A stretch of 64,000 bases of DNA from an uncultured Verrucomicrobiae bacterium (GTDB taxonomy: Bacteria; Verrucomicrobiota; Verrucomicrobiia; Opitutales; JABDGR01). Location: positions 128,001 to 192,000 of the forward strand of contig CAVXVB010000008.1 in NCBI GenBank assembly GCA_963765205.1, given 5' to 3'. The position numbers were made by a program, and so were the translations under genes. The notes below the pieces were generated by a model. The model did not search any database and was not told where the DNA came from. It saw only the letters and a program-made list of their open reading frames with translations. Of this stretch, positions 10,001 through 63,898 are shown in pieces. Each line of letters starts with the position of its first letter. The first letter of the stretch is position 1.

Positions 10001-10146
10001 GTTTCGAGTTGAACCAAGACTCCATCCTTTCACCGCAAAGGCGCAAAGAGCGCAAAGGAGGATTTTTGGTCGGACTTTCCCTTTGCGTTCCTTGCGTCTT
10101 GGCGGTGAATTATCTCGAAACCCAAAACCCGAAACTCGAAACTAAC
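9976..10146. repeat. Nested inverted tandem-repeat element: outer 7-mer arms (TTTCGAG/CTCGAAA), inner 9-mer arms (CGCAAAGRR)
   Basis: Outer arms 9976-10009 and 10113-10146; inner arms 10029-10059 and 10079-10109. Each pair is reverse-complementary. Confidence 0.85.
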
Positions 10147-10149
10147 CCC

Positions 10150-11304
10150 ATGTCTTCCCCTTTCTCATTGCTCGCGACCGCCGGCGGCGCGCGGCGCGGG
10201 CGGCTGCGCACGGCGCATGGCGCGGTCGAGACGCCGGCCTTCATGCCCGTGGGCACGCAGGGGACGGTCAAGGCCGCGACGCCCGCGCAACTGCGCGAAG
10301 TGGGCGCGCAAATCATCCTGAGCAATACCTATCACCTGAACCTGCGGCCCGGGCCTGCGCTCATCCGCGAACTCGGCGGCCTGCATAAATTCATGGCCTG
10401 GGACGGGCCGATTTTGACCGACAGCGGCGGCTTCCAGGTCTTCAGCCTCGCCAAGCTGCGCAAAATTTCCGACGACGGCGTGGCGTTCCGCTCTCACCTC
10501 GACGGCGCGGAGATTTTCCTCGGCCCGCGCGAGTGCATGGAAATCCAGGCCGCGCTCGGTTCCGACATCGCGATGGTGCTGGACGAATGCCCGCCCTGGC
10601 CCGCGCCAGAGGAGGACGTGCGCGCGGCGGTGGCGCGCACGCTGCGCTGGGCGAAAGCCTGCCGCGAGGTCTGGCGCGGACTCGGCCAGCCGGAACAGGG
10701 CCGCCAGCTTTTCGCCATCGTGCAGGGGTCGTCCTTCGCCGCATTGCGCCGCGAATGCGCGGAGGCGCTCGCCGCGCTGGATTTTCCCGGCTATGCCATT
10801 GGCGGCGTCAGCGTCGGCGAGCCGGAGGCGGAGATGCTCGCCGCGGTGGCCGCCGCGACGCCGCATCTCCCGGCGGACAAGCCGCGCTACGTGATGGGCG
10901 TGGGCACGCCGCCGCAGCTTTTGCGCATGATCGCGCTGGGCGTGGATTTGTTTGATTGCGTGATGCCGACGCGCCTCGCGCGGCACGGCTGCGCGTTCAC
11001 GCCCGACGGCCCGGTGATTTTGAAAAACGCGCAATTCGCGCGCGACGCCCGCCCGCTCGTCGAAGGGCTGGACAATTACACCTGTCGCCATTTCACGCGC
11101 GCGTATCTGCGCCACCTCGTGATGTGCGGCGAAATCCTCGGCTGCACGCTGCTCACGCTGCACAACCTGCATTTTTATTTGAACCTGATGGCCCAAGCCC
11201 GCGCGCAAATTGAAAGCGGCGGTTTTGAAAAATGGGCGCGGGAGTGGTGCGCGCGGTATGAGGCCGGGGAAGGAGCGGGTGACGCGGCACCGGAGGCAGA
11301 TTAA
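10150..11304 (+). CDS. tgt: tRNA-guanine transglycosylase
   Basis: TPAFMPVGTQGTVK, NTYHL, LTDSGGFQVFSL, DCVMPTR, HNLHFY. Confidence 0.96.
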   Translation: MSSPFSLLATAGGARRGRLRTAHGAVETPAFMPVGTQGTVKAATPAQLREVGAQIILSNTYHLNLRPGPALIRELGGLHKFMAWDGPILTDSGGFQVFSLAKLRKISDDGVAFRSHLDGAEIFLGPRECMEIQAALGSDIAMVLDECPPWPAPEEDVRAAVARTLRWAKACREVWRGLGQPEQGRQLFAIVQGSSFAALRRECAEALAALDFPGYAIGGVSVGEPEAEMLAAVAAATPHLPADKPRYVMGVGTPPQLLRMIALGVDLFDCVMPTRLARHGCAFTPDGPVILKNAQFARDARPLVEGLDNYTCRHFTRAYLRHLVMCGEILGCTLLTLHNLHFYLNLMAQARAQIESGGFEKWAREWCARYEAGEGAGDAAPEAD

Positions 11305-11309
11305 CACCT

Positions 11310-11813
11310 ATGCTTGTCCTATTCTGTTCTCGCCTAATATCTAATGTCAGGCATAATTTTAATGAAATGATTAGCCGAAAACCTTTCCTGGTTTTAGCCT
11401 CCTTGGCCTATGCGCTATATGTCTTGAGCTATTGCATGGGCGTTGGGTTTGACGTCGCTTTTTGGCAAGTCGACTGGGCGATTTTTGCCAAACTTTGCCT
11501 GTTGGCATTTCCAATTTATATTTATTTGGGGTTTAGGTTTAATACGAAGCTGTTTTGGTATGATCTTTTGTTTTTGCTTATTCCCTACATAATCTGGTTT
11601 TTATCTGTTCTTTTTATCCCCAAGTCATTGATAAATGGCTTTATCGTAGAACCGGAAATTCTTTTTCTTTTATTTGGGCTATATTTTTCAATCATACCAC
11701 TCTCTAATTTGAAATTGAGGATCTCTCGTAAAATGATCTGCTCGCTACTTGCAATATTTCTGTCAATTGGAGCTTGGGCGGTTGCCTATGTTGTTCCGGC
11801 CCTTCCGGAGTGA
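11310..11813 (+). CDS. hypothetical multi-pass membrane protein, AT-rich (possible start 11367)
   Basis: Hydrophobic ORF with about 5 TM segments; composition sharply more AT-rich than the flanks. Confidence 0.6.
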   Translation: MLVLFCSRLISNVRHNFNEMISRKPFLVLASLAYALYVLSYCMGVGFDVAFWQVDWAIFAKLCLLAFPIYIYLGFRFNTKLFWYDLLFLLIPYIIWFLSVLFIPKSLINGFIVEPEILFLLFGLYFSIIPLSNLKLRISRKMICSLLAIFLSIGAWAVAYVVPALPE

Positions 11814-11902
11814 AGAGGGCGCAGTCTTGCGGTGTCTTTTTTGATGTTGCCTCGAGAAACAGAAGGGCTTGCCCCACAGCCATTTTTTTCCATTATCGCA
11901 TC

Positions 11903-13035: not shown

Positions 13036-13039
13036 GGGG

Positions 13040-15816: not shown

Positions 15817-15821
15817 TTTTG

Positions 15822-20938: not shown

Positions 20939-21152
20939 AAGAATGAAGGATGAAGGATGAAAAAGAAAGGATGAAGGATGAGGGATGCAGGATGAAGAAG
21001 AATATGCTGAATTCTGAGTTATGAATTCTGCAATCCAGAAAAATTACTCAAACTGTTTGTGGGGCGTTGATTTTCGTTGGCCCCAAGACGCAGCAATCCC
21101 CATTCCGATTTTGCTTCATTTTTCATCCTGCATCCCTCATCCTTCAGCCTTC
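20939..21152. repeat. Inverted 7-mer element (GGATGAA / TTCATCC) between divergent genes
   Basis: Arms 20939-20997 and 21114-21152. Confidence 0.85.
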
Positions 21153-35338: not shown

Positions 35339-35470
35339 AATTTTGCCTTCAGCCTTTTCCAAATCGTTGGCCACTACGCGACCCTTTGGTTGACCCCAAT
35401 TTGAAGACATCACCTAATTTTTCACTTTCAAGTCGCGAAGCGCGCGCAGGGGGTAATGGTGCGAATTTAT

Positions 35471-35500
35471 TCTTTGCGCTCTGGGCGGCTTTGCGGTGAA
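35471..35500. repeat. Solo 9-mer arm (reverse complement TTCACCGCAAAG...)
   Basis: Matches arms at 10029, 10079, 63519, 63775 and 63868. Confidence 0.75.
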
Positions 35501-44570: not shown

Positions 44571-44598
44571 TAAGCTTCTGCTGGAGGATACTCAATTC

Positions 44599-44982: not shown

Positions 44983-45036
44983 GGGTCTGTTTTCGCCGTT
45001 GCCAAGTGCCCCCGGTGTGTCTAGCACTAACGTTTC

Positions 45037-45921: not shown

Positions 45922-45958
45922 TGGTTCTCCCACCACGGCAACGTAATGGGTTTGGATT

Positions 45959-46345: not shown

Positions 46346-46363
46346 GAATAAATCATAGTCAAA

Positions 46364-48738: not shown

Positions 48739-48760
48739 AGATGGTTTCGCCGGCGATCTT

Positions 48761-49789
48761 TCACACCCAGGCGAGGTTGCGTGCGTAGCCGGACGTCATC
48801 CACGCTTCGCACGCGGTCAGATCCACCACGCACAATCGGTGCAGGCGCGGGAGGGTCGAAGATTGCGCCGCCGCCGCCGGGTCTATTTTCAGCATTCTCG
48901 TCAAGGGCAGCGCAAGCAACCGGCCTTCGGCATCGAGGGTGAGGGGGCGCGCGTAGTTGATCTCGGTGTAAGGGTTGCCAACGATACGCAAGAGGCGCCG
49001 CTCCGCACCGGTCGCGCAGTCAAGGTGGAAGAGGTCGGAGCTGCTTTCCGAAAACCAGCAGCCCGCGCCGTCGGGCGTCCAGCGCGGATACTGGCCGCGC
49101 TCGCGCAGGCACTGGCACGAGCCGGTTTCGAGGTTCCACAGCCAGATGCCGTCGCCACCGAGGAGGGCCAGCGGCTTGTGCGGATGCAAGTCGCCGCCCC
49201 GGCCCAACGGCCCGCCCGGTGGGAGAATCCGTTCCTGCCGCCCAGTGAAGGTCACCAATTGCGTGCCTTCGACCCCATAAAAAATTATCCAGCGCCGACG
49301 CGGGCACCAAGCGAGCGGCGCAAAGGCGTCGCGCGGCAGGGCAATCAAGTGCAATGCGCCCTGGCGCAGGTCAATCACGGCCAGATGATGGCGGATATGA
49401 ATGGCCCGCAAACGCGTGTCCGTCGCCACCAGCGCCAGGAGCGCATTGGCCTCGACCCAATGGCCCAGCAGCCAAATGGCCCATTGGTGCAGCCCGAGGC
49501 GGATGAGGCGGCGGCTCTGGCCCGTGGCGAGGTCGAATTCGCGAATCTCACTGAAATCGCGCACGCCCAGGCGAAGCTGGCAGCAATAGGCCCAGGCCAG
49601 CCCGCGCGCGGCATCCACCGCCAGCGGGCAATCCACGCCCCCCAAGTGGCCCAGCGCGCGCGGCGCGGCAAAGTCGGTCTCCGCCAGTTGGCACTCGCCG
49701 CCATCCTCCCAGAGCAGCCGTCGGCCGCAGGCGCGCGGCGCCACCTCGCGAAATCCTTGCGCCATCTGGAGCTTCAACGGCAGCGACAT
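48761..49789 (-). CDS. hypothetical TolB/WD40-like beta-propeller protein
   Basis: DLATG, NLETG, YPRWTPDG blade-like motifs. Confidence 0.6.
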   Translation of the reverse strand: MSLPLKLQMAQGFREVAPRACGRRLLWEDGGECQLAETDFAAPRALGHLGGVDCPLAVDAARGLAWAYCCQLRLGVRDFSEIREFDLATGQSRRLIRLGLHQWAIWLLGHWVEANALLALVATDTRLRAIHIRHHLAVIDLRQGALHLIALPRDAFAPLAWCPRRRWIIFYGVEGTQLVTFTGRQERILPPGGPLGRGGDLHPHKPLALLGGDGIWLWNLETGSCQCLRERGQYPRWTPDGAGCWFSESSSDLFHLDCATGAERRLLRIVGNPYTEINYARPLTLDAEGRLLALPLTRMLKIDPAAAAQSSTLPRLHRLCVVDLTACEAWMTSGYARNLAWV

Positions 49790-49809
49790 GGGGTTTCCGG
49801 AGGTTTTTT

Positions 49810-49895
49810 TTTTGACAGAATTAACAGAATTTACAGAATTATCCTTAATAATCATCCCAAGACTAATTTTGTTAATTCCGTTAATTCTGTCAAAA
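49810..49895. repeat. Inverted 9-mer element (ACAGAATTA x3)
   Basis: Arms 49810-49841 and 49864-49895 are near-perfect reverse complements. Confidence 0.88.
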
Positions 49896-49909
49896 GCCTG
49901 GGTGCCCCT

Positions 49910-50371
49910 TTACTCCTGCAGCTCGGCCACGCACTGGATTTCCACGGCGGCGTTTTTGGGCAGGCCGGCAACCGCGACTGCCGCCCGCGCGTGCCGCCCG
50001 CGGTCGCCAAAAACTTTCACCAGCAAATCCGATGCGCCATTGAGGACGGCCGGGCTGTCCGCAAACCCCGCCACGGCGTTGACGAAGCCATTAACCAGCA
50101 CGAAGCGCTCAAGGTTCTCGAGCGAGCCGGCGGCCGCCTTGAGCGCCGCAAGGGTGTTGAGCGCGCACACTTGCGCCGCGGCATAACCGGCGGCCACGTC
50201 CAAATCACGCCCAACCTGCCCGGCGTGGGTGAGGACGCCGTCGCGCACCGGGAGCGTGCCCGCGAGGAACACCAGCCGCCCGCTGCGCACGGCCGGCAGA
50301 TAATTGCCCGCCGGGGCGGGCGCCGGCGGCAGCTTGAAACCCAGGTCTGTGAGATTTTTTTCGTAGTGCAT
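49910..50371 (-). CDS. RidA/YjgF family protein
   Basis: PAPAGNY, NGASDLL..VFG..GRHARAAV...LP...AVEI. Confidence 0.92.
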   Translation of the reverse strand: MHYEKNLTDLGFKLPPAPAPAGNYLPAVRSGRLVFLAGTLPVRDGVLTHAGQVGRDLDVAAGYAAAQVCALNTLAALKAAAGSLENLERFVLVNGFVNAVAGFADSPAVLNGASDLLVKVFGDRGRHARAAVAVAGLPKNAAVEIQCVAELQE

Positions 50372-50386
50372 GGAGTTAAATCCGGT

Positions 50387-50444
50387 ATTTCAGATTCCAA
50401 ATTTCAGATTTGAGATTTGAATTCTGCGATCTTAAATTTGAAAT
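50387..50444. repeat. 7-mer element (ATTTSAR) with a short inverted arm
   Basis: atttcag attccaa atttcag atttgag atttgaa ... atcttaa atttgaaat. Confidence 0.65.
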
Positions 50445-51406
50445 CAATTGACGACGTTTTGCGGCCTGCCTGCCAGACAGGCACGAATATTAGCCAGCGT
50501 GATGCCGAGCAGCCGGCGGCGCGCCTCCTCGCTGGCCCACGCCAGGTGCGGCGTGATGACGCAGTTGGGCAGACCGAGCAGGGGGCAATCGGCGCGCATC
50601 GGCTCCTGCGCCACCACGTCCAGCGCCGCGGCGCCGGGCCGGCCCGCACGCAACGCCGCCGCCAACGCGGCCTCATCCACCAGCCCGCCGCGCGCGGTAT
50701 TGACGAAGAGTGCGCCGGGCTCCATACGCGCGAGCAGCGCCGCGTTGACGAAGCGGGTGTTCTCCGGCGTCTGCGGGCAATGGAGCGAAACAATGTCCGC
50801 CCGCTCGAAAATTTCACCGATGTCGGCCCAGGCGAACGGTTGCCAGTCCGGCGGATTATGCCGGCGGCGAGCATAGGCGAGCACCTGGGCGCCGAGCGCG
50901 TGCGAAGTCGCACCCACTTGTGCGCCAATGGCGCCAAAACCGATGAGACCGACCGTGCGCCCGGCCAGCTCGCGCAGCGGCGTCTTCCAATATGAAAACC
51001 GCGGGCTGCGCACCCAGTCGCCCGCGCGCACGGACTGGTCGTGCAGCGCAACGTGGTTGCTCCATTCGAGCATCAGCGCGACCGCGTGCTGGGCGACGGA
51101 CGCGGTGCTGTAGTCCGGCGCATTGCAAACCGTCACCCCGCGCGCGCGCGCCGCCTTTGCGTCTATGATGTTGAAGCCCGTGGCCAGCACCGCGATGAGC
51201 CGCAAGTCCGGCAGCGCGGCGAGCGTGGCCGCGTCGAGCGGCACTTTGTTCGTGAGCACAATTTGCGCGCCAACGCAATTTTGCCGGATGGCGGCCGGGT
51301 CGTTCGGCGTGAGCGGATGCAGCACCAACTCCCCCAGCGCGCGGAAGCCGGCCCAGGCGTCGTCGGGAAAATCGAGGGTGGCCGCGTCGAGGACGGCGAT
51401 TTTCAT
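50444..51406 (-). CDS. D-2-hydroxyacid dehydrogenase (glycerate dehydrogenase/HprA-like)
   Basis: TNKV, ATGFN, GFGAIG, SLHCP, NTARG, TPHLAWAS. Confidence 0.92.
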   Translation of the reverse strand: MKIAVLDAATLDFPDDAWAGFRALGELVLHPLTPNDPAAIRQNCVGAQIVLTNKVPLDAATLAALPDLRLIAVLATGFNIIDAKAARARGVTVCNAPDYSTASVAQHAVALMLEWSNHVALHDQSVRAGDWVRSPRFSYWKTPLRELAGRTVGLIGFGAIGAQVGATSHALGAQVLAYARRRHNPPDWQPFAWADIGEIFERADIVSLHCPQTPENTRFVNAALLARMEPGALFVNTARGGLVDEAALAAALRAGRPGAAALDVVAQEPMRADCPLLGLPNCVITPHLAWASEEARRRLLGITLANIRACLAGRPQNVVN

Positions 51407-51548
51407 TCCCCAGCATCGCGCGGCGTCCGCGTGGTGGCAAGCTTTTGGCGCACGGCCGGACGTATTTTCGTAGCGCTGAGCTTCAGCCAGCGCTACGAAG
51501 CGAACCCTCGCCGCAAAATGCGCCGCGCCAAAACCCCGCCGCATTTTT

Positions 51549-51586
51549 AACTCGAAACCCACAACTCGAAACTCGAAACTAACCCC
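51549..51586. repeat. Solo 7-mer arm (CTCGAAA) ending AACTAACCCC-ATG
   Basis: Near-identical to the arm before tgt (10113-10149). Confidence 0.8.
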
Positions 51587-52378
51587 ATGACCGCATCCCG
51601 ACCCGCCAGCGTCGCGCTGGAAGCCGTGGGCAAACGGTTCAACGACGGGCCGGAGGTGCTGGCCAGCGTCACGCTGACGGCGCGGCCCGGGGATTTCATC
51701 GCGCTCATTGGCCCGAGCGGCTGCGGCAAAACCACCCTGCTGCGCCTGCTCGCGGGATTGACACTGCCTAGCGCGGGCGCAATCACCCTCGACGGCGTCA
51801 TCCCGACGGAGGCGCGCGGGCACCTCTCGTTTATTTTTCAAGAGCCGACGCTGCTGCCCTGGCTAACGGCGCAGCACAATGTCGAGCTGCCGCTGCGTTT
51901 GCGCGGCGAACCGGGCGCGCCGCGCCAAGAACGGGCGCTCGAACTGCTGAAGCTCGTGGGCCTGGAAGCGGCGGCGGCGCAATTTCCACGGCAGCTTTCC
52001 GGCGGGATGAAGATGCGCGTGTCGCTAGCCCGCGCACTAACGCGCCAACCGGGTTTGCTGTTGCTCGACGAGCCGTTCGGCGCACTCGACGAATTAACGC
52101 GCAACCGCCTCAACGAAGACCTGCTGCGCCTACGCGAGCGCGCGCCGTTCACGGCGTTTTTCGTCACCCATTCGGTGAGCGAGGCGGTGTTTTTGAGCAA
52201 CCGGATTTTTGTCCTCGCGGCCAATCCCGGGCGCGTGGCGGCGGAGATCGTCGCGCCGTTCCCCTACCCGCGCACGGCGGAACTGCGCGAAACGCCGGAA
52301 TACCTGCAACTCGTCGCGCGCGTCACCGCCACGTTGCGGGCAAGCGGCTCGCCAACCGCAAACAAAATTGCGCCATGA
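51587..52378 (+). CDS. NitT/TauT family ABC ATP-binding protein
   Basis: GPSGCGKT, LSGGM, LLDEPFGALD, VTH. Confidence 0.93.
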   Translation: MTASRPASVALEAVGKRFNDGPEVLASVTLTARPGDFIALIGPSGCGKTTLLRLLAGLTLPSAGAITLDGVIPTEARGHLSFIFQEPTLLPWLTAQHNVELPLRLRGEPGAPRQERALELLKLVGLEAAAAQFPRQLSGGMKMRVSLARALTRQPGLLLLDEPFGALDELTRNRLNEDLLRLRERAPFTAFFVTHSVSEAVFLSNRIFVLAANPGRVAAEIVAPFPYPRTAELRETPEYLQLVARVTATLRASGSPTANKIAP

Positions 52379-53163
52379 ACTCATCCACGAAAAAAAGCCC
52401 GCTGTGGTTGCCGCCGTTGCTGGCCGGGGCGGGGCTGCTGGCGTTGTGGTATGGGGCCATCGCGGCGTTCCGCATCCCGACCTATTTGCTGCCCGCGCCC
52501 CATGAGATTCTACAGGCGCTGTGGCGTGAGCGCGCGTCGTTGTTACCGGCGGCACTGCGCACGGGCGGCTCGGCGTTGGCGGGTTTTTTGGCCGCGGTGG
52601 TGGGCGGCGCGGTGGTGGCGGTGACGCTGGCCAGCTCGCGGCAGGTCAAGGCCGCGCTGCTGCCGTGGGTATTGGTGGTGCAAATGGTGCCGGTGGTGGT
52701 GCTGGTGCCGATCTTTGTCATCTGGTGGGGCGCGGGCCTGCCGAGCATCGTGGCGATTGCCTTTGTGATTTCCTTTTTTCCCGTCGTCGCGAGCACAACT
52801 CTGGGCCTGGTTTCGACCGACCGCGGGCTGCTCGATTTGTTCACGGTGCTGCAAGCGAGCAAGGCGCAGGAAATTTTCCTGCTGCGGCTGCCTTACGCGT
52901 TGCCCTACTTTCTCTCGGGGGTGAAAATTGCCGCGACACTCGCGCCCATTGGGGCGATTTCCGGCGAATTCCTCGCCGGGACGACGCCCGACAGCCTCGG
53001 CTACCTGCTGCTGATTTACCGCAGCGATCCGGGCAAAATGCCCGAGGTGTTTGCGATTGCACTGGTCACCTGCGCGCTGGGATTTTTATTTGTCGGCGCG
53101 GTGCGGTTGCTGAGCGGGCGGCTGCTGCGCCACTGGCACGAATCGGAACGGCGCGGCGAGTAG
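52375..53163 (+). CDS. NitT/TauT family ABC permease
   Basis: LLPAP, FFPVV..T..GL, LRLPYALP, GAISGEF. Confidence 0.9.
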   Translation: MNSSTKKSPLWLPPLLAGAGLLALWYGAIAAFRIPTYLLPAPHEILQALWRERASLLPAALRTGGSALAGFLAAVVGGAVVAVTLASSRQVKAALLPWVLVVQMVPVVVLVPIFVIWWGAGLPSIVAIAFVISFFPVVASTTLGLVSTDRGLLDLFTVLQASKAQEIFLLRLPYALPYFLSGVKIAATLAPIGAISGEFLAGTTPDSLGYLLLIYRSDPGKMPEVFAIALVTCALGFLFVGAVRLLSGRLLRHWHESERRGE

Positions 53164-53168
53164 CGGCT

Positions 53169-54326
53169 TCACGCGTAAGGAAATTTCGCCCACTTCGCGC
53201 CGGCTTTCGCGCTTTTGACCGCAGTTTCGATGAAGGTCATCCCGATGACGCCGTCTTCGATGGTGGGATAATCGAGGTCCTTGGGCAGGGGCCGGCCTTC
53301 GACTTCTGCCTCAATGGCGCGGAAGGCTTCGAGGTAAATATTGGCGAAGGCCTCGAGGTAGCCCTCGGGGTGGCCAAAGGGGATGCGCGTGAATTTCTTC
53401 GCGGTGGCGCCGACGTAGCTGTTGCCCCGCCGCCAGATTTCGCGCGGGCGGTCGGGATATTTCATGATGAGTTCGTTGGGATGCTCCTGGTGCCATTCCA
53501 ACGCCGCCTGGTCGCCGTAAACACGGATGTTGAGGTTATTTTCCTCGCCGATGGAAATTTGCGAGGCGTGCAGCACGCCCTTCGCGCCGCCGGCGAAACG
53601 CACGAGGATGTTCGCGTCATCCTCGAGCGCGCGGCCGGGGACGAAGGTCGTGAGGTCGGCGCAGAGAGACTCGATGCGCAGGCCGGTGATGTAACGGGCG
53701 AGGTTTTCGGCGTGGGTGCCGATGTCGCCCAGGCAGCAGGCTGCGCCGGATTTCTTCGGGTCGGCGCGCCAGGCCGCCTGCTTCTGGCCGGTGGTTTCGA
53801 GACGCTGCCAGAGCCAGCCTTGCGGGTATTCGACGACGACCTTGCGAATTTTACCGAGGCGGCCCGACTGCACCAGTTCGCGCGCCTGCTTGACCATGGC
53901 GTTGCCGGTATAGTTGTGCGTGAGCACAAAGACTTTTTTGGTCCGGCGCACGATCTCGCGCAATTTTTTCGCCTCGGCGAGGTTGAGCGTCGCGGGCTTG
54001 TCGCACACGACGTTGAAGCCGGCCTCAAGCAGGAGTTTCGCCGGCGGGAAATGCTCGTGGTTGGGCGTGACGATGACGACGAAATCGAGCCGCGTGAGCG
54101 CGGGCATTTTCGACTCGGCTTTCACCATCTCGGCATAGGTGGCATAAACGCGCGCGGGGTCGAGCAGCAAATCCTGCCCGGTCAGGCGCGAATTTTCCGG
54201 GTCGGCGGAAAAGCAGCCGGCGACCAGCTCGGCCTTGCCGTCCATGACGGCCACAATGCGGTGCACCGCGCCGATAAAAGCGCCGCGCCCGCCACCAATC
54301 ATGCCAAAACGTAGTTTGCGTTTCAT
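53169..54326 (-). CDS. Gfo/Idh/MocA oxidoreductase
   Basis: [36 protein letters not shown]. Confidence 0.92.
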
Positions 54327-54344
54327 GGGGAAGAAGAAGAAGGA

Positions 54345-54798
54345 TTAACCACGGAGAACACGGAGGACACAGAGGGGTTAAATGATAAGGCGTTTGATAC
54401 CTTGTTTGAGTAGACGAACCTTAAAGTTGACAAGCCAGCCTATGCGGTTGTTGGTGAGGCGCAGGTAGTCAGCACTTGGGCTTCATGAATCGGTAACAAC
54501 TCCTCCACCGTTTTCAACTCAACAATAATGGAATCTTCCACCAGCAGGTCGATGCGAAATCCTTCATCGAAAGTCAGGCCATCGTATTCCACCGGCACGA
54601 TTTTTTGACGCTCAGCCCGCAACCCTCGTTTGCGAATTTCGTCGGCGAGACAAGCCTCGTAAACGGATTCCAACAAGCCGGGTCCCAGCGTTGTATGCAC
54701 CTGCAATGCCGCCGCCAAAATCCGGCCTGTAAGTTTTTCTTGTTCCATAAAGACAATTTCTCCGTGTCCTCCGTGTCCTCCGTGTTCTCCGTGTTTAA
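54345..54798. mobile_element. Putative cassette: GxxExxY gene bracketed by inverted 9-mer arms
   Basis: Left TTAACCACGGAGAACACGGAGGACACAGAG (54345-54374); right arm 54758-54798 reads TTAAACACGGAGAACACGGAGGACACGGAG on the minus strand. Confidence 0.65.
54378..54748 (-). CDS. GxxExxY protein (PD-(D/E)XK-like); 1-bp frameshift near 54468
   Basis: VHTTLGPGLLESVYE, RIDLLVE, IVELK, HEAQVLT | YLRL..IGWLVNF...GIKR. Confidence 0.9.
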
Positions 54799-54804
54799 AT
54801 TTCT

Positions 54805-55848
<1,044 letters not shown>

Positions 55849-55879
55849 GGGGTAATCTTTCTGGTTTAAAATTTGCCGT

Positions 55880-56236
55880 TTACAATGACAAAAGAATTCG
55901 CAGCCGGTCTTCGACTTCAGCCATCGTGGCCGGGGCAACCATGCCCCAGCGGCGTTCCAGGCGCGCTTTGCTCACCGAACGAATCGCTTCGCACATGATG
56001 GCGGACGGAGCTTTGAGTCCACCCTCGGAAGGTTCGGCGACCACATGCCAGGGAATCGAACGCAGGTTGGTGGTAATGGGAATCGCCACCACCAGATCCG
56101 CCCCACTCTGGTTAAATTCCGCCACCGAGACGACGAGCACTGGCCGACGCCCCGCTTGCTCGCGTCCCTTGATGGGATCGAGATCAGCCAACCAAACTTC
56201 GCCTCGTTGCGGATTTATGGAAGTGGTGGGCGCCAT
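55880..56236 (-). CDS. PemK/MazF family toxin
   Basis: [36 protein letters not shown]. Confidence 0.93.
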
Positions 56237-56239
56237 GGT

Positions 56240-56489
56240 TCAGCGGCTTTTCAATCCATCAGCTAAGTGTGACCTCCCACTCACCCAACTCCGACTGGTG
56301 CTTTTTCCAGGCCCGCGGGTCGCGGCGCAACGCGTCGTAGGCTGCGCTGGCTTCTTCCAGGAATTTCTGGCGACGGTAGGTTTCCAGCGCTTGGTCAAGA
56401 ACCTCCGACATGCTGGCATCGTCTGCGGAAGCAAGACGGCGCAGCAACGCGTGGCCCTTGGACGAAATACGGACGGTGGTGGCGGACAT
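56240..56489 (-). CDS. ribbon-helix-helix antitoxin; probable 1-bp frameshift near 56265 (otherwise ends at 56259)
   Basis: TTVRIS...LRRLA...MSEVLDQALE; typical WE.TLADGL tail in the adjacent frame; directly upstream of the toxin. Confidence 0.8.
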
Positions 56490-56499
56490 GAGCCTATTC

Positions 56500-56548
56500 A
56501 GGCCTTTGAATACATTTTTGTCAACAATTTTGGCTACCAAAATGACAT
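56500..56548 (-). promoter_or_regulatory. TA promoter/operator: TTGACA -35 and palindrome ATTTTGG-N3-CCAAAAT
   Basis: Palindrome at 56527-56543 adjacent to a minus-strand TTGACA. Confidence 0.5.
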
Positions 56549-56549
56549 C

Positions 56550-57656
56550 TTACAACACCACAAGCGAATCCCGGTGCACCAGCTCAAGTTTTTTGCGGCC
56601 GGGGAATTTTTTCGCGATTTCGGTGCTGTCCTGGCCGGCGATGGCGCGGGCCTCGGCGGCGTTAAATTGGACAATGCCGCGCGCGATGGCCGCGCCGGTC
56701 GCGCCGATGATGGCGACGACGTCGCCGGCGGCGAACGCGCCTTCGATGCCCGTCACGCCTTTGGCGAGCAAACTGCCGCCTTGGTCGCGCAGGGCGCGCT
56801 CCGCGCCGGCGTCCACCAGCACCCGGCCGGCGGGCTGCTGGAACCAGGCGATCCAGCGCTTGCGGGAATCGAGCGCGATTTTTTCCGGGACGAAGAAGGT
56901 GCCCGCGCCCGCGCCAGCGAGCAGGCGCGGCAGAATCGCCGGGTCCGCGCCGCTGGCGATGATGACGCCGCAGCCGGAGCGCGCGGCGATTTTCACGGCG
57001 GCGAGTTTGCTGATCATGCCGCCGACGGCGGTGTCGCTCTCGGTGCCGCCCGCGAGCGCTTCGATTTGCGGGGTGATTTTTTCGACGACGGGGATGATGT
57101 GGCCCGTGCCCGCGCGGTCCACGAGGCCCGGCGCGGTCGAAAGCAGAATGAGCAAGTCCGCCCCTGCGAGGCTGGCGACGAGGGCGGAGAGCGTGTCATT
57201 GTCGCCGAACTTCAATTCCTCGACGCTGACGGAGTCGTTTTCGTTGATGACGGGGATGAGGCCATCGGCGAGGATTTCCTCGAGCAGTTCCTTGACGGCG
57301 AGGTGCCTGCCGCGCGGGCCGAGGTTGTCGCGCGTGTAGAGGAGCTGGGCGACGGTGAGGCCGAAGGGGTTGAAGGCGCGCTGCCAGGTTTCAATCAGGA
57401 TGCTTTGGCCGACGGCGGCGCATTTTTGCACCGAGGTGAGTTTGGCCGGACGTTTCGCCAGGCCTAGACGGCCCATGCCGAGGCCGACCGCGCCGGAACT
57501 GACAATCAAAACTTGCAAACCCGCCGAGCGCAGCGCGGCGACCTCGCGCCCGAGCGCCATGATTTTGGCCGTGTCCAACTGCCCGACGCCGGAGGTAAGG
57601 ATGCCGGTGCCAATTTTCAAGACGACGCGACGGACGCGGGTGGGTAAAGGGGACAT
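56550..57656 (-). CDS. proB: glutamate 5-kinase
   Basis: VVLKIGT, VSSGAV, AAVGQ, INENDSV, FGDND, GGMISK; PUA domain. Confidence 0.96.
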   Translation of the reverse strand: MSPLPTRVRRVVLKIGTGILTSGVGQLDTAKIMALGREVAALRSAGLQVLIVSSGAVGLGMGRLGLAKRPAKLTSVQKCAAVGQSILIETWQRAFNPFGLTVAQLLYTRDNLGPRGRHLAVKELLEEILADGLIPVINENDSVSVEELKFGDNDTLSALVASLAGADLLILLSTAPGLVDRAGTGHIIPVVEKITPQIEALAGGTESDTAVGGMISKLAAVKIAARSGCGVIIASGADPAILPRLLAGAGAGTFFVPEKIALDSRKRWIAWFQQPAGRVLVDAGAERALRDQGGSLLAKGVTGIEGAFAAGDVVAIIGATGAAIARGIVQFNAAEARAIAGQDSTEIAKKFPGRKKLELVHRDSLVVL

Positions 57657-57665
57657 GGAATTTCT

Positions 57666-58085
57666 TTACTTATGCTTATTGAAATCGTTGAACATATTCT
57701 CCATTTGATCAAGAAGTGGCAATACAGACTGAGCAGTTTTTGTAAAAACATCCGATGAAGCACCAGGTTGATCATATCTGAACCAGCAATCTGGACCGCT
57801 TCCTAATTGCGGCTTAATTCTTACTCGTTGATCTAAATCCCAAGCGGTAACTTTATTCGGAGGTATTTGCTCGCCCCAATGAGTAGTGAAGCCTGCTGGC
57901 CCACATTGAGCTAATTCGATCACAAATCCACCTCCGTGACGATCAAATTGGAAGGTAATTAGAACAATGCGCGATTCACTGAGACGACGCAAATGCGGAA
58001 AAGAACCTGTAAATCCACATTCCCGTAAAGGCGGAATAATGATCGCCTTTAGTGCATCACGCATACGATCACTTGCATCGGACAT
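57666..58085 (-). CDS. hypothetical protein (DUF4304-like), AT-rich
   Basis: PLRE.GF.GSFPH.RR..LITFQFD..GG.F.IE; composition shift. Confidence 0.7.
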   Translation of the reverse strand: MSDASDRMRDALKAIIIPPLRECGFTGSFPHLRRLSESRIVLITFQFDRHGGGFVIELAQCGPAGFTTHWGEQIPPNKVTAWDLDQRVRIKPQLGSGPDCWFRYDQPGASSDVFTKTAQSVLPLLDQMENMFNDFNKHK

Positions 58086-58089
58086 TGGA

Positions 58090-58650
58090 TCACACCTTCA
58101 TCAACTCGGCTTCCTTGGTGGCGAGGTGCTTGTTGATTTCGGCGATGAATTTGTCGTGCTCAAGCTGCACGTCCTTTTCGGAGCGCTTGAGGTCGTCCTC
58201 GGTGATCACGCCGGCGGACTTGGCCTTTTTCAGGACGTCGTTGGCTTCGCGGCGGACGGTGCGCACGCGGACGCGGCCTTCCTCGGCGTGGGTGTGGGCG
58301 ACCTTGGCGAGGTCCTGCCGGCGTTCGCGCGAAAGCTCGGGCATGGGGCAGCGGATGAGGTCGCCCTGCACGAGAGGATTGAAGCCGAGGTTGGCGGACT
58401 GGATGGCCTTTTCGATGTCGCGCAGCAAGCCCTTGTCCCACGGCTGGATTTGGATGGTGCGCGCGTCGGGCGTGGTGATGGCGGCGACTTCCTTGAGGCG
58501 CAGGGCGCTGCCGTAGGCCTGGACTTGCACGGACTCGACCATGACGGGCGTGGCCTTGCCGGTGTGCAACGTGGCGAATTCGTGCAGCGTGTGCTCGACC
58601 GCCTTGGTCATGGCGGCCCGGGATTCGGGGAGGATTTTTTTAGGGTCCAT
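58090..58650 (-). CDS. frr: ribosome recycling factor
   Basis: TGKATP, IQPWD, LGFNP, ERRQDLAK, VRTVRR. Confidence 0.95.
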   Translation of the reverse strand: MDPKKILPESRAAMTKAVEHTLHEFATLHTGKATPVMVESVQVQAYGSALRLKEVAAITTPDARTIQIQPWDKGLLRDIEKAIQSANLGFNPLVQGDLIRCPMPELSRERRQDLAKVAHTHAEEGRVRVRTVRREANDVLKKAKSAGVITEDDLKRSEKDVQLEHDKFIAEINKHLATKEAELMKV

Positions 58651-58663
58651 AAGGGAAAGAGTA

Positions 58664-58743
58664 GGAATGGAAGATGGAAAATGGAAGATGGAATAAAAGA
58701 GGGGAGCCTGAGACGGATTTTTCCATCTTCCATTTTTCATTCT
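58664..58743. repeat. Inverted 7-mer element (GATGGAA / TTCCATC) between pyrH and frr
   Basis: Arms 58664-58693 and 58718-58743. Confidence 0.82.
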
Positions 58744-58746
58744 TTG

Positions 58747-59490
58747 CTACTGTACCATCGTCCCCGTGCTTTGGCCGAGGACGGCTTTGCGGATGCCGTC
58801 AGGGTCGGCGAGGTTGAAGACGAGGATGGGGATGTGGTTGTCCAGACAGAGGGAGAACGCCGCCGAGTCCATGACGTTGAGGCGCTGGCGCAGGGCGTCG
58901 AGGTAGGACAGCGTGGTGTATTTTTTGGCGTCGGGGAATTTTTTGGGGTCGCGGTCGTAAACGCCGTCCACCTGCGTGGCCTTGATGAGGATTTGTGCGC
59001 CGAGTTCGGAGGCGCGCAGCGCGGCGGTGGTGTCGGTGGAAAAATAGGGGTTGCCGGTGCCGGCCACAAAGATGACGAGGCGGCCGCGTTCGAGGTGGCG
59101 CAGGGCGCGGCGCAGGATATACGGCTCGGCGATCTTGTCCATGGGGATGGCCGTCATGACGCGGACTTCGACACCGAGTTTTTCGAGGCCGTCCATGAGC
59201 GCGAGGCCGTTGATGACGGTGGCCAACATGCCCATATAGTCGCCCGTGGCGCGGTCGGTGCCCTGGGTGGTCATGCCCTTGAGGCCGCGAAAGATGTTGC
59301 CCCCGCCGACGACGACGCCGACCTGCACGCCGAGGTCATGCACTTCCTTGAGCTGGTGGCAGATGCGCGTGAGAATCTCGCTGTCAATCGGGTCGCCGCC
59401 CGCGGAATTCTTCAACGCCTCGCCGCTGAGCTTGAGGACAATACGGCGGTATTTCGGCTTGGGCTGGGCGCGGGCGGAGGCAGGTTTCAT
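58747..59490 (-). CDS. pyrH: UMP kinase
   Basis: [34 protein letters not shown]. Confidence 0.97.
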
Positions 59491-59669
59491 GCAAAAACGG
59501 GTAATGCCGGGAAAATCGCCCGGCGTCAATCCTGTGTCGCAGATTTACAAGATAGACAAAAAACGTCACAATTGCGTAAATTCTAGCCCATCAGCGGATT
59601 CCCGCAGGTTCGGGCTTGCGTCCCGGGCGGTTTCGCGGTTTTTTGGAGGGCTGGCCGAACCGGCCACGC

Positions 59670-61457
59670 ATGCCCGACCCGACCCCCAAAGAGGAAGTCA
59701 TTTTACAAGGCGTGCCCGCTTCCCCCGGCGTGGCGCATGGCCCCGCCTTTGTCTTTTTGCAAAAGGAACTGGAAATCCCCGTGTACGAAGTCGAGGAAGC
59801 GCGCCGCCCGGTGGAAATCCGCCGCTTCGAGCAGGCGCTGACGGCGACGCGCGCGCAGATTTCGAAATTGCGCGCGGAGGTCGCCAGTTCGCTCGGCGAA
59901 AGCGAGGCGCGCATCCTGGACGCGCATTTGCTCGTCCTCGAAGATAACGCCCTGATTGAGGAAACCATCCACGAGTTGCGCACGAAGGGCTACAACGTGG
60001 ACTATTGCTTCAGCACCGTCGCCCAGCGCTACATTGACGCCTTCGGCAAAATGGAGGACGAGTATTTGCGCGAGCGCGCGGCGGACATTCGCAACGTCGC
60101 CCGGCGCGTGCTCCACCAACTGCTCGGGCATTCGGCCGCGTCGCTCTCGCGCCTGGGCGGCCAGCGTGTGATCATCGCGCAGGATATTTCACCCTCGGAC
60201 GCGGCGAGCCTGGACCGGCACAGCGTGCTGGCCATGGCCACCGACACCGGCAGCCGCACCAGCCACGCTGTCATCATGGCGCGCTCGATGCAAATTCCCG
60301 CCGTCGTGGGCCTGCACGACGCCACGCGCCGGGTCGAAAACAACGACCGCGTGCTGGTGGACGGCTACGAAGGCCTGCTCATCATCAACCCGACCAACCA
60401 GACGCTCTTCCGTTACGGCCGCATCGAGCAGCGCCAGCGCGACATCCGCCACGCCATTGAGGAAGTCATCCCGCAGCCGTGCGAATCGCGCGACGGCCAA
60501 CGCCTGGGATTGATGGCCAACATTTCCGGCCCGGAAGACATCGAGGACGTCAAGCGCTTTGGCGCGGAGGGCGTCGGCCTTTACCGCACAGAAGCGTTGT
60601 TCATCCGCCGGGACAAATTTCCGGATGAAGAAGAGCAATTCGAGGCCTACAAGGCGGTCGTCACGGCGCTCCAGCCCCGCCCGGTGGTCATCCGCACCCT
60701 CGACTTGGGCGGCGACAAGCAGACCAGCACCTCGCACCTCGCGCATCCGGAAGACAACCCCTTCATGGGTTTCCGCGCCATCCGCTTTTGCCTCGACCAC
60801 TCCGACATGTTCCGCGACCAGTTGCGCGCCATTCTGCGCGCGAGCGCCTTTGGCGCGGTCAAGATCATGTATCCCATGATCAGCGGCCTGCAGGAACTGG
60901 TGCAGGCCAACCTCCTCCTGGAACAGGCCAAGGACGAATTGCGCGCGCGCAAGGTGGCCTTCGACAAAAACATCTGCGTCGGCAGCATGATTGAAATCCC
61001 CAGTGCGGCGTGGACGGCCGACCAACTCGCGCAGCACTGCTCCTTTTTCAGCATCGGCACCAACGACCTCATCCAATACCTCCTGGCCGTGGACCGGGTG
61101 AATGACCGCGTCGCGCATCTTTACGAGCCGGCGCACCCGGCCGTGCTGCGGGCTATCCAGCACATCATCGCCACCGCGCGCCAGCACAAGCTCACCACCA
61201 GCATCTGCGGCGAAATGGGCGGCGACCCGCTCTTCACCCCCATCTTCCTCGGCATGGGCGCGGATGATTTGAGCGTGGCTCCGGCCGGCCTGCCCGATGT
61301 CAAATATCTTCTGCGCAACATCCGCCTCGACGAGGCGCAGGCCCTCGCCGCCAAGGCCTTGCAGCAAACCGACCCGAAAAACACGCTCGCCATCCTGCGC
61401 AAGTTCTACCTGGAGCACATGGGCAGCCTCGCGCGGGCGGACGTGGGGCAGGCTTGA
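59670..61457 (+). CDS. ptsI: PTS enzyme I
   Basis: GSRTSHAVIMAR, GVGLYRTE, RTLDLGGDK, IGTNDLIQY, CGEM. Confidence 0.95.
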   Translation: MPDPTPKEEVILQGVPASPGVAHGPAFVFLQKELEIPVYEVEEARRPVEIRRFEQALTATRAQISKLRAEVASSLGESEARILDAHLLVLEDNALIEETIHELRTKGYNVDYCFSTVAQRYIDAFGKMEDEYLRERAADIRNVARRVLHQLLGHSAASLSRLGGQRVIIAQDISPSDAASLDRHSVLAMATDTGSRTSHAVIMARSMQIPAVVGLHDATRRVENNDRVLVDGYEGLLIINPTNQTLFRYGRIEQRQRDIRHAIEEVIPQPCESRDGQRLGLMANISGPEDIEDVKRFGAEGVGLYRTEALFIRRDKFPDEEEQFEAYKAVVTALQPRPVVIRTLDLGGDKQTSTSHLAHPEDNPFMGFRAIRFCLDHSDMFRDQLRAILRASAFGAVKIMYPMISGLQELVQANLLLEQAKDELRARKVAFDKNICVGSMIEIPSAAWTADQLAQHCSFFSIGTNDLIQYLLAVDRVNDRVAHLYEPAHPAVLRAIQHIIATARQHKLTTSICGEMGGDPLFTPIFLGMGADDLSVAPAGLPDVKYLLRNIRLDEAQALAAKALQQTDPKNTLAILRKFYLEHMGSLARADVGQA

Positions 61458-61600
61458 GCCGCGGGCAACGTCAATTTCCTCGACGGGCCGCCCGGTTGTC
61501 ATTATTTTGAGAACTTTGGCTTCATCGGCAGGTCTTATCCTGAATATTGGCATCCCGTCCCCGCGGTGAAGCACCCCTCCATTTTTTTCGCCCGACTCGC

Positions 61601-63493
61601 ATGGCCCGCCGACGCAAAGACACCTATTACCACCGTGGTGAACCCAGCCGCTGGAGCAAAGTGTTCAAGGTGCTGGGCGTCTTGCTGGTCGTCGCCGCGG
61701 TGCTGGGCGGGACCTGGGTCTTGACCTTGTTCCAGCCGCGTAAAATCAAATACAACGACCCGGCGTTGCAGCCCATGGGCGAGATTCCCAAGGCCGTCTC
61801 CGCCCTGCTCGACCAAAGCAAGGACCTGGAAAAAAAGTTCACCGACGCGACCCAGGCGCGCGACATCACGCCGGACGACCTGGCCAGCCTGCGCCACGCA
61901 ATCCAGTTGCAATTGGATTACCTGGATCAATCGCAAAACCACAACCTCGCCGAGGGCAATGCGCGCATTGAACGCATGACCATCGCGCTCGAGACCTACG
62001 AGGCCAAACCCTTGCGCGCCCAAAGCCTGGACCTGGAAACCAAGGCCGGCGGCCTCGAAGCGCAAAGCGACCTGACCGGCGCCATCAAACTCCTCGCGCA
62101 AGCCGCCGCCTTGGAAGGGCAAATCGTGAAGGACGACCCCAAAGGAGACTCGTATACGTCCGCCCTCAGCCGTGAAATCCAGCTGCGGCACCATGTGGAT
62201 TACCTGACGGCGTTGCCGATCTATAATGAAAGCGCCGCCAGTGAAGCCGCCGCCAAAACCGCCCTGGCCGCGCAGGATTGGGCCGCCGCGCAAAAGAATT
62301 TCCAGCACGCCTACGACCTCCAGTTGAACCTGAACCGCAATTTCCCCGAGCAAAGCTTCGTCAGCGCCCAGCGTGAAAATGACCTCCACAATGAAGTCAC
62401 CGCCCTGCGCTCGCTGCCCGATTACCAGCGCGTGCAACAATCCCTGGCCGACGCCCGGGCGGCCGACGCCGCGGCCGACCAGAGTGACGACCCGGTCAAA
62501 GTCAATCAAGCCGCCGAGCAGGCCGCCCAGTTTTACCAGGAAGCCTATCGCGAACAGGACGACCTCGACAACCATTTCCCGGACTCCCGTTTTGCCGATT
62601 CCTCGCAACTGGCGAAAATCCAGGCGCTGCTCGAAACGTCCAAGAGCCGCCCGCTCGCCACCGAGATCAAGGCGCAGGCCGCCGCGCTCTTTGCCGACTT
62701 GCGGAACCGCCATCCCGACCAGGTGAGCGCGACCATCTCCGTGCTCGAGCAAAAAGCCACGCACTTCCACGAAGCTTTTTCGCAGAGCACCTTGCTCAAC
62801 GCCGATTTGCAAAAACGCCTCGACTTCCTCTATTATAAACGCGACGACCTGGCCGCGATCCAGGAACAGGTTTACGGGCAACTGGCCGCCCTGCCCGGCC
62901 AGCAAACCTTGCAACTCGCCAAGCAGGAAGTCACCCAATCCCTCTACGCCCTGGTCGAAGGGGGCAGCCCCAGCCGTAATCCCGGCGCGCAGCGGCCCGT
63001 GGAAATGGTGAATTGGAACGACGCGCAGGAATTCTGCAGCCGCCTCTCTTGGATTCTCGCCCGCCCGGTGCGCCTGCCCACCGAGGCGGAATACCGCGCC
63101 GCCCTCGGCCCGACCGACGCGCTCGACGTAGCCGCCGTCAGTTGGAACTTCGACAATTCCGCCAGCCAGACGCATGACGTGGCGACCAAGGACGCCAACG
63201 CCAACGGCTTTTACGACCTCCTGGGCAACGTGGCCGAGTGGCTCGGCCGCACCCTCGACGAGGACGACGACAAGGCCCCCGTCATCGGCGGCAACGCCCT
63301 CACGCCGGTGGACACCATCCGCCAGGTCCGCGTCACCGAGCTGGCGCGGGACAACCGCAATCCCTACACCGGCTTTCGTTTTGTGGTGGACCTGGACGAT
63401 TCGCTCCCCGTCATGCCCGCCCCACCCGCCCCCGCGAAAGCCGCGCCCGAGCCGGTCATCCCGCCCGACGACGTCAAGCCGGTGCAGAATTAA
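61601..63493 (+). CDS. membrane-anchored helical protein with a C-terminal FGE/SUMF1-like domain
   Basis: N-terminal TM; EVTQ, PVEMVNW.DA..FC, RLPTEAEY, NGFYDLLGNVAEW, GFRFV. Confidence 0.85.
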   Translation: MARRRKDTYYHRGEPSRWSKVFKVLGVLLVVAAVLGGTWVLTLFQPRKIKYNDPALQPMGEIPKAVSALLDQSKDLEKKFTDATQARDITPDDLASLRHAIQLQLDYLDQSQNHNLAEGNARIERMTIALETYEAKPLRAQSLDLETKAGGLEAQSDLTGAIKLLAQAAALEGQIVKDDPKGDSYTSALSREIQLRHHVDYLTALPIYNESAASEAAAKTALAAQDWAAAQKNFQHAYDLQLNLNRNFPEQSFVSAQRENDLHNEVTALRSLPDYQRVQQSLADARAADAAADQSDDPVKVNQAAEQAAQFYQEAYREQDDLDNHFPDSRFADSSQLAKIQALLETSKSRPLATEIKAQAAALFADLRNRHPDQVSATISVLEQKATHFHEAFSQSTLLNADLQKRLDFLYYKRDDLAAIQEQVYGQLAALPGQQTLQLAKQEVTQSLYALVEGGSPSRNPGAQRPVEMVNWNDAQEFCSRLSWILARPVRLPTEAEYRAALGPTDALDVAAVSWNFDNSASQTHDVATKDANANGFYDLLGNVAEWLGRTLDEDDDKAPVIGGNALTPVDTIRQVRVTELARDNRNPYTGFRFVVDLDDSLPVMPAPPAPAKAAPEPVIPPDDVKPVQN

Positions 63494-63518
63494 ATTGGGT
63501 TATAAAATGTTAAATCGA

Positions 63519-63550
63519 TTCACCGCGAAGGCGCGGAGAGCGCAAAGGGA
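63519..63550. repeat. Solo 9-mer arm TTCACCGCGAAGGCGCGGAGAGCGCAAAG
   Basis: Matches the family at 10029, 35471 and 63775. Confidence 0.75.
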
Positions 63551-63774
63551 AACGTTACGGAATTAACATAATTTATACTAACCTTGTGTTGTTTTGAACT
63601 TGAGGATGCCGGGTTCTTCGTCCCGGGGAGCCGCGACCACCAAAAAAATCAACCGCCAGACGGTGCATGCGGGATGAGCGCGCATGGCAGGGGCAAGGGC
63701 TGGATAACAATCATCTAACGGCGAAAGCCATAGACGGCCACGGTCAATTGGGCAAGGTAATTAGCGAGTGATTT

Positions 63775-63898
63775 TTCACCGCGAAGACGCCAAGAACGCA
63801 AGGAAGATTTTTGGGCAGAATTAACAAAATCTCTCCCGGCACTTTGTGCCTGGGTGAACAAAATTTATTCTTGGCGCTCTTCGCGCCTTTGCGGTGAA
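63775..63898. repeat. Inverted 9-mer element (TTCACCGCRAAG...)
   Basis: Arms 63775-63804 and 63868-63898. Confidence 0.85.

Follow-up and report, generated by a model that had tools for sequence, protein, structure and literature searches.

Gene-less inverted repeats of an uncultured Verrucomicrobiae bacterium as probable relatives of GxxExxY cassettes

Short inverted repeats without a gene between their arms occur in a 64,000-nucleotide stretch of DNA from an uncultured Verrucomicrobiae bacterium (the window; C8:128001-192000 of a 4.02-Mb assembly, here called G000, which is 92% complete). We find that these elements are very probably gene-less relatives of the GxxExxY cassettes, small units in which a single gene for a GxxExxY protein of predicted PD-(D/E)XK fold lies between inverted arms, each an array of some three repeats of 8-10 bp. 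Furthermore, we favour, at a probability of roughly 0.6, that they are non-autonomous repeats of this nuclease cassette, recognised by GxxExxY in trans. By their units, we distinguish family A (CGCnAAG), family B (overall CACGGAK, divided into B1 with CACGGAG and B2 with CACGGAT) and family C (ACAGAATT).

The kinship is seen in other genomes, where arms of the same families surround intact GxxExxY genes, as a preliminary description of the window had supposed. A arms flank such genes in G006 (same genus), G008, G009 and G019 (loci L002, L004, L012 and L024), and C arms do so in G002 and G003 (same genus), G032 and G033 (loci L015, L016, L018 and L086). Matches to PF13366, the GxxExxY profile, were present in 21 of 41 genomes of the order. 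We compiled 128 GxxExxY loci, 49 from relatives and 79 from among the 80 best of 311 in GTDB, a sample that is biased to relatives of one protein, and dropped five of them (four at contig edges, one without a match). Inverted arms were found at 110 of the remaining 123 loci and at 6/123 in the shuffled control. A quick tree was built from 107 proteins over 127 columns, with 16 rows excluded as broken, short or armless and 19 rows having unclassified or mixed arms. All 15 T-ending or C-type arm sets fell within one branch of 22 rows, and 72 of the 73 G-ending sets lay in the other. Moreover, three A-armed proteins of the bacterial family form one clade, and their arms show the CGCnAAG motif and the 8(-9) spacing of the G000 elements. 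These patterns show that arm motif and spacing follow the protein tree and that arms and gene travel together, which does not imply binding.

Copy number also goes along with the cassettes. Across ten genomes of the family and four arm families, at least 11 pattern matches were counted in all eight genome-family combinations with a matching cassette, compared with 7 of 32 without one, and G000 itself accounts for three of these seven. The six genomes that reached at least 11 copies all had a PF13366 match, while the four without a match had at most five copies of any family.

We searched G000 as a whole for inverted arms, as the preliminary description had proposed, using profiles built from the arms themselves (cut-off score 18 for A and B, 22 for C) and two codon-shuffled genomes as the control. 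Profiles were used in place of an earlier regular-expression census that proved too loose (57-60 background matches for A). Family A yielded 172 arms, which form 67 pairs and leave 38 unpaired, and family B yielded 158 arms, with 59 pairs, one being the cassette of the window, and 40 unpaired; the shuffled genomes gave 0-1 for either family. Family C yielded 39 arms with six pairs (shuffled, 0). This amounts to about 130 gene-less paired elements, with 131 interiors. Pairs predominate over singlets, since 134/172 A arms and 118/158 B arms are paired. A decayed partner lay inward of 5 of the 38 unpaired A arms and 7 of the 40 unpaired B arms, and outward of none. Decay is further advanced in unpaired than in paired A arms (1.47 versus 0.93 mismatches, p = 0.018), with only a trend in this direction for B (p = 0.076).

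The lengths of the A pairs, quoted here as the TTCACC-to-GGTGAA span minus two bases, are sharply modal: 31 of 67 fall at 78-81 bp, thus within 4 bp, and eight at 121-123 bp. Genes of G000 were called with a simple hexamer model (3131 genes), so that distances to starts are approximate. A stop codon was found at most 30 nt from 56 of the 67 A pairs (median 14 nt). Gaps between co-directional genes hold 47 of these pairs and divergent gaps three, against 297 divergent gaps among 1608 background gaps (p = 0.002). The families are also nested in one another: among 66 A pairs shorter than 300 bp, a C arm lies inside 16 and a B arm inside four, a 7-mer arm lies inside 8 of 58 B pairs, and no B or C pair contains an A arm. 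One such nest, of 454 bp (G000 C9:1432360-1432813), consists of A and C arms enclosing a long palindromic repeat like the one that flanks a Y1/RAYT-like gene at C5:557983.

In the window itself, the two A pairs and the C pair of the preliminary description were all recovered (Table 1). These three pairs fold strongly on both strands (z = -5.4 to -10.4), and none of 200 shuffles equalled them; the two regions with one intact arm each behaved like the shuffles (z = 0.05 and -0.71). Two arms had been described as solo. The one at 63519, which starts 26 nt past a stop codon, is truly unpaired and resembles the left half of an A element with C units inside, an A[C] element; the one at 35471-35500 turned out to be the right arm of an 80-bp pair, whose left arm reaches a profile score of 17.8. 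Fragments of an ACRGAATTA unit had been reported in and next to the CGCRAAG elements, and we located them at 63555-63573 and 63814-63865. The element at 10029 is nested within a pair of GTTTCGA 7-mer arms, a nesting absent from the preliminary description; the GTTTCGA family flanks a gene for a four-helix-bundle protein at G000 C9:1011406. Contigs of a second sequencing run of the same study matched 9827-10170 and 63566-63887 without differences, which makes an assembly artefact unlikely for the elements there. At 56262, one base is absent in the contigs of two runs, a possible assembly error near a gene start. Run contigs over 44100-64000 and 9300-11300 contained no joint that excises an element between unique flanks; where joints fell at arms, the loops differed and seem to belong to further copies. 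The best of these runs are from one study and possibly from the source sample, so that they are uninformative on strain variation and expression. Both arms of the C pair, 49812-49839 (+) and 49893-49866 (-), begin with TTGACA and give a sigma-70-like score of 10/12 pointing inward; judged by this motif, C elements could supply promoters.

Table 1 Positions of the repeat elements and of the GxxExxY gene in the window.
Position	Strand	Feature	Context
9980..10007	+	Left 7-mer GTTTCGA arm around the 10029 element	Overlaps miaA stop
10029..10109	no strand	Gene-less family A pair (TTCAC-CGCnAAG-n-CGCnAAG-nn-CGCnAAG arms), modal size class	miaA-tgt gap
10115..10142	-	Right 7-mer GTTTCGA arm around the 10029 element	Directly before tgt ATG (10150)
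35421..35500	no strand	80-bp pair of family A; left arm (35421-35452) decayed, right arm (35471-35500) intact	Glycerate kinase-cupin gap
49811..49894	no strand	Gene-less family C pair (ACAGAATT units, three per arm)	Downstream of Rid/YjgF-family gene
54345..54376	+	Family B1 arm	3' end of GxxExxY gene
54378..54748	-	GxxExxY gene (TIGR04256 / PF13366), carrying the D-ExK residues; a frameshift follows 'EAQVLT', and the first frame ends with a stop at 54440	
54760..54798	-	Family B1 arm, four units	Upstream of GxxExxY start codon
63519..63573	+	Unpaired family A left arm 63519-63549, then two C-type units 63555-63573; truncated A[C] element	
63775..63898	no strand	Family A pair, member of the 121-123 subfamily; its 25-nt mini-hairpin (63832-63856) lies between C units at 63814-63831 and 63857-63865	

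The interiors of the elements speak to how the gene-less forms multiplied. The loops of A elements are homologous, with 49 of 2016 loop pairs scoring at least 40 (shuffled, 0). The 121-123-bp subfamily comprises seven intact elements, including the one at 63775, and one with a decayed arm, all with a common interior, whose 25-nt mini-hairpin shows compensatory changes by eye. Other subfamilies with a shared interior are five elements of 134-135 bp and four B2 elements of 92 bp, and in four equal-length copies of 135 bp the arms are 89% and the interiors 68% identical. Such shared unique interiors indicate that gene-less elements were copied as units, after gene loss. The loop homology between copies ruled out a 'wrap-around' idea, in which arms are written on either side of unrelated target DNA. 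The mini-hairpin also occurs outside A elements, after GCTCGGG at G000 C12:53707 and C4:58337, and is perhaps part of another repeat.

The preliminary description had taken the elements for non-autonomous or deleted derivatives. Their kinship to cassettes is borne out, whereas an origin as independent deletion scars, in which a full cassette was inserted at each site, lost its gene and left an immobile gene-less form, appears improbable. The spacer contents hold no trace of it: GxxExxY remnants were found neither in the 131 gene-less interiors nor within 300 nt on the inner side of 105 unpaired arms. The sharply modal lengths also argue against it, and the unique non-coding interiors common to 4-7 loci already weaken it. 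In its favour, the GxxExxY gene of the window is itself decaying through a frameshift, and loops start with a GGAGG-ATTTT stretch that is found, by eye, before cassette start codons. Furthermore, four relatives (G006, G008, G009 and G019) have a full A-armed cassette at a junction where G000 has a gene-less pair, but the latter belongs to a different, related unit family, a 9-mer pair of CRCARAA units. This small fourth 9-mer family has three arms by pattern in G000 (C5:469381, C4:96585 and C4:103388).

We then compared the arms position by position. The 21 motif positions of the A arm deviate from consensus at 4.4% per site, i.e., they are 95.6% conserved. The six spacer positions are free, with 109 haplotypes in 134 arms, and position 8 is not visibly linked to the remaining five. 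At each of these six sites, matches between left and right arm are at chance level, so neither pairing nor mismatch is selected and an enforced arm-arm mismatch was ruled out; adenine-specific mutagenesis like that of diversity-generating retroelements was ruled out by the invariant motif adenines. The two arms of one A element are no more similar than arms of different elements (0.81 versus 0.80). Mixing of B1 and B2 within an element is almost absent, as 54/59 and 57/59 pairs agree at two diagnostic sites. By eye, a unit core R-C-n-R-A is common to the families. The proposal that length and period rather than sequence are conserved is therefore half right: length is strongly modal, but the motif is highly conserved and a degenerate core is shared. 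The period in family A is 8 and then 9 rather than a uniform 9, and the TT-N-AC outer end, thought to be shared by all, is present in 148/172 A, 65/158 B and 20/39 C arms and in C is out of register with the units.

Strong folding, the location behind stop codons and the depletion in divergent gaps would also suit intrinsic terminators of the usual kind or RNA hairpins produced by slippage, with an incidental link to GxxExxY. Several observations make this very unlikely. Of 81 A ends that follow a stop codon, only two carry a U-tract (at least 6 T in 10 nt; 20/66 for B, partly the arm's own TT), and none of 32 terminator-like matches in 45000-64000 coincides with an element. G-U and A-C mismatches on the transcribed strand are equally frequent (64:64 for A, 56:50 for B), the spacers of A arms do not co-vary, and most A pairs sit between co-directional genes. 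A conserved motif and a modal length, together with free spacers, equal G-U and A-C counts and rare U-tracts, indicate selection on motifs and spacing without strand preference and not on an RNA stem. Thus, the pattern points to sequence recognition and not to stem pairing.

At orthologous junctions, which we read by eye, families have been gained, lost and swapped between species, the level that the comparison covers. The miaA-tgt gap contains an A pair in none of eight relatives: arrays are absent from G006, a C-type pair is present in G008, and the rest have 7-mer arms, in G002 along with 9-mer fragments. Among seven relatives, the site at 49811 holds a C pair in G003, another 9-mer pair in G001 and short empty gaps in G004, G006 and G008. 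At 35421, A-like remnants occur in G003, G005 and G009 and are missing from four others. The 63519/63775 site has no arms in nine relatives, but the downstream gene differs there. Arms that flank GxxExxY genes, sites that vary among relatives and missing terminator features all speak for the relationship advanced in the preliminary description.

In a reverse mapping, 60 of 73 A and 30 of 60 C matches of the relatives were used as loci and yielded 31 A and 14 C distinct junctions in G000, of which 11 and two, respectively, carry the same family. At the shared A sites, motif identity is 283/315, to be read with the relatives' arms having been picked by exact motif, and spacer identity is 33/90, as in random pairs. 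Most genes flanking A arms at junctions shared by G000 and G008, a member of another genus, have a four-fold-site identity of 0.58-0.78, excluding two loci at 0.93-0.95 that are probably shadow reading frames. Two A elements (G000 C8:241333 and C9:1338024, compared with L181, L231, L211 and L236) recur among relatives with differing inner families or none, from which it follows that loops act as landing pads. Elsewhere, at a junction which we take to be gyrB-gyrA (G000 C8:327251-327855), G000 has a four-helix-bundle cassette where G039 has a GxxExxY cassette. At one that is presumably gatA-gatB (C9:235515-235615), G002 and G003 have a C-armed GxxExxY gene, and G000 has a pair of short-unit arms without a gene.

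These sites bring in the main rival, which is backed by the lack of young copies and by the old shared sites, and which we regard as a real though clearly smaller possibility. It states that the elements derive from cassettes, rarely move and are now retained by selection at gene 3' ends as binding sites for a factor acting in trans, which could be a protein of the host or a GxxExxY that has been domesticated; roles in organising DNA, controlling recombination or stabilising mRNA are examples. The conserved motif with randomised spacers and no near-identical copies, the position of most A pairs close to a stop codon, and the persistence of family A in G000 without an A-armed gene would all be expected, as would A arms at the same junction in two genera despite the divergence of the flanking genes; Ssn-SRM, as excerpted from PMC11893778, offers a published precedent of domestication. 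However, the same junction in relatives carries other families or nothing, genomes without GxxExxY are almost array-free, A arms look decayed in G003, which has no A cassette, and the mismatches show no strand preference. Mobility and retention may also be successive stages.

G000 contains a single PF13366 match, the gene in the window, which is B1-armed, frameshifted near its 3' end and matches TIGR04256 with an E value of 1e-32 (PF13366 for the protein, 2.6e-42). The orthologue in G003 is intact, and its structure model has a predicted local distance difference test (pLDDT) score of 94. Structural matches of this model are PD-(D/E)XK proteins, the best being Cas4 SSO0001 (Z 8.1, root mean square deviation 3.7 Å, 99 residues), followed by BpuSI (Z 7.9), SwaI (Z 7.7) and Hjc (Z 6.6); such middling Z scores of a model support the fold only. 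Four residues, E27, D67, E77 and K79, show no variation among 39 aligned sequences from a single clade. When the PDB was searched by sequence, there was no match at E <= 1, and Foldseek with the model yielded nothing at E <= 0.001; no transposase-like family was among the matches listed, which excludes nothing. In G029, 20 PF13366 matches were found, many spanning profile positions 2-43 only, i.e., repeated truncated copies of the GxxExxY gene.

Under our preferred reading of non-autonomous repeats recognised in trans, GxxExxY would be an active nuclease. It would bind the three heptamers of each arm in trans, probably as an oligomer that bridges both arms, which we propose as the cause of the fixed element lengths. 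The arms would be brought together and cut at the outer ends of the element, and host repair or recombination could then insert the unit without target duplication, with AT-rich patches behind stop codons or the loops of other hairpins as candidate landing sites. Unpaired arms would represent decayed or truncated pairs. A search for target-site duplications (direct repeats of 2-9 nt at four boundaries of 67 A and 59 B pairs) stayed at permutation level, with one of 64 cells high (6 versus 1.4); old copies could have lost a duplication.

Several points weigh against this reading. We infer mobility, while neither insertion nor excision was observed. The best nearest-neighbour identity among elements is 86%, so there are no recent duplicates and there was no recent burst. 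The sole GxxExxY gene of G000 is frameshifted and B1-armed though A is the most abundant family, and many copies without a matching cassette are found in G000 (A, B2, C), G008 (B2, C), G009 (C) and G002 (B2), whose assemblies have a completeness of 68-96%. Genes of the A, B2 and C types may have been lost from G000 or left unassembled, and its element population may now be orphaned. The Fisher value of 8e-5 for the copy-number test is overstated by kin genomes and a post hoc threshold of 11 copies. The branch in the quick tree has a support of 94 by the Shimodaira-Hasegawa-like approximate likelihood ratio test (SH-aLRT), not starred; joint inheritance of gene and arms would produce the same tree pattern without binding. 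The 11/31 shared A sites with a conserved motif fit long residence under selection as well as re-insertion. Lastly, the function of PDDEXK_3 is given as 'Unknown' in an excerpt of PMC3424549.

The same cassette design recurs with shorter units: seven four-helix-bundle genes of G000 (PF05635) are flanked by 7- or 8-mer arms. The 7-mer families of the window are GGATGAA, GATTTAT, GGAAAAT, GCTGAAT, GTTTCGA and ATTTCAG, and five of these six flank such genes in G000. Their inverted arrays lie at 13043-13070/13175-13251, 15280-15293/15354-15367 and 58669-58689/58725-58738, and unpaired arrays at 20941-21019, 34131-34158, 38679-38713, 50401-50421 and 51566-51579.

What follows from these results concerns both the protein and its repeats. 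GxxExxY (PF13366), a cross-phylum family without an assigned function, is now tied to a defined DNA substrate, and a test with one protein and one oligonucleotide becomes possible. Selection has kept the motif bases and the arm distance, not spacer pairing and not strand, which predicts which mutants matter in such an assay. Should GxxExxY mobilise gene-less elements, small repeats would have a new means of colonising gene junctions, and the family would be a candidate supplier of compact nucleases with sequence specificity, which is what Ssn proved to be. We further put forward, as a tentative idea that is possible rather than probable, that GxxExxY forms a third class of nuclease-repeat replicator beside RAYT-REPIN and Ssn-SRM. 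Here, a 123-residue PD-(D/E)XK protein would read three spaced heptamers (CRCnRAK) per end and move the intervening DNA without transposase or target duplication, copying or refreshing would scramble the unread bases, and motif and spacing would be specific to each clade. If this were true, thousands of natural GxxExxY variants would serve as a library of site-specific nucleases of very small size, and the 7-mer/four-helix-bundle cassettes would explain the long-noted bacterial excess of 7-9-nt intergenic repeats. We found no published description of GxxExxY-armed gene-less repeats, subscription papers and supplements lying outside the search; one mention of GxxExxY, in a source seen in excerpt, was incidental.

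Miniature inverted-repeat transposable elements (MITEs) are short non-coding elements that have terminal inverted repeats in common with a coding partner, form fixed-length subfamilies and nest. The gene-less elements show all of these features, with the cassettes as coding partner; they differ in that we detected no target-site duplication, the partner is not a known transposase and copies are at most 86% identical. Intergenic tandem repeats are known from Xanthomonas (GGGAATC; PMC4692102) and Beggiatoaceae (TAACTGA; PMC4679880). According to excerpts of these reports, they also form short tandem arrays near stop and start codons, which in Xanthomonas are rarer between divergent genes, but G-quadruplex or regulator-binding roles were proposed there and no partner gene is named in those excerpts. 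In our elements, GxxExxY is the partner of the 9-mer arms, and four-helix-bundle genes go with the 7/8-mer arms.

The closest parallels are repeats with a partner enzyme. Excerpts of Bertels and Rainey 2011 (PMC3116915) and Di Nocera et al. 2013 (PMC3733652) describe REPIN-RAYT, in which likewise the enzyme gene is flanked by repeats, many gene-less inverted doublets occupy extragenic space mostly downstream of genes, hairpin-forming doublets outnumber the more decayed singlets, and nesting is mosaic, as in bacterial interspersed mosaic elements (BIMEs). However, RAYT is a HUH/Y1 transposase whereas the partner here has a PD-(D/E)XK fold, REP is a short palindrome whereas an arm here is a direct array of three degenerate units, and our elements lack a master sequence and near-identical copies, with cassette clades that mix phyla. 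It is also very doubtful that another enzyme of G000, such as its Y1/RAYT-like transposases, moves the elements as REPINs: Y1_Tnp genes are present (four over the cut-off) and one A[C] element nests a repeat like that beside a Y1 gene, but the three Y1 genes inspected have unrelated flanks and not these arms, copy number follows the GxxExxY cassettes, and arm pairing is not maintained at spacer sites. The Ssn nucleases with their NTS/SRM repeats, as excerpted from Chenal et al. 2025 (PMC11893778), are similar in that a small single-domain nuclease gene has the repeat on both sides, hundreds of gene-less copies exist, repeat variants match protein variants and repeat-rich genomes usually encode the nuclease. 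They differ in fold (GIY-YIG), in the SRM being a 20-50-nt hairpin cut as single-stranded DNA, whereas here a single arm does not fold and the pair does, and in that binding and cutting are proven for Ssn, whereas here they are proposed. Taken together, the elements would work like REPIN-RAYT or Ssn-SRM, yet their partner, a PF13366 protein of PD-(D/E)XK fold, is neither HUH/Y1 nor GIY-YIG, so that by the defining enzyme they belong to neither system.

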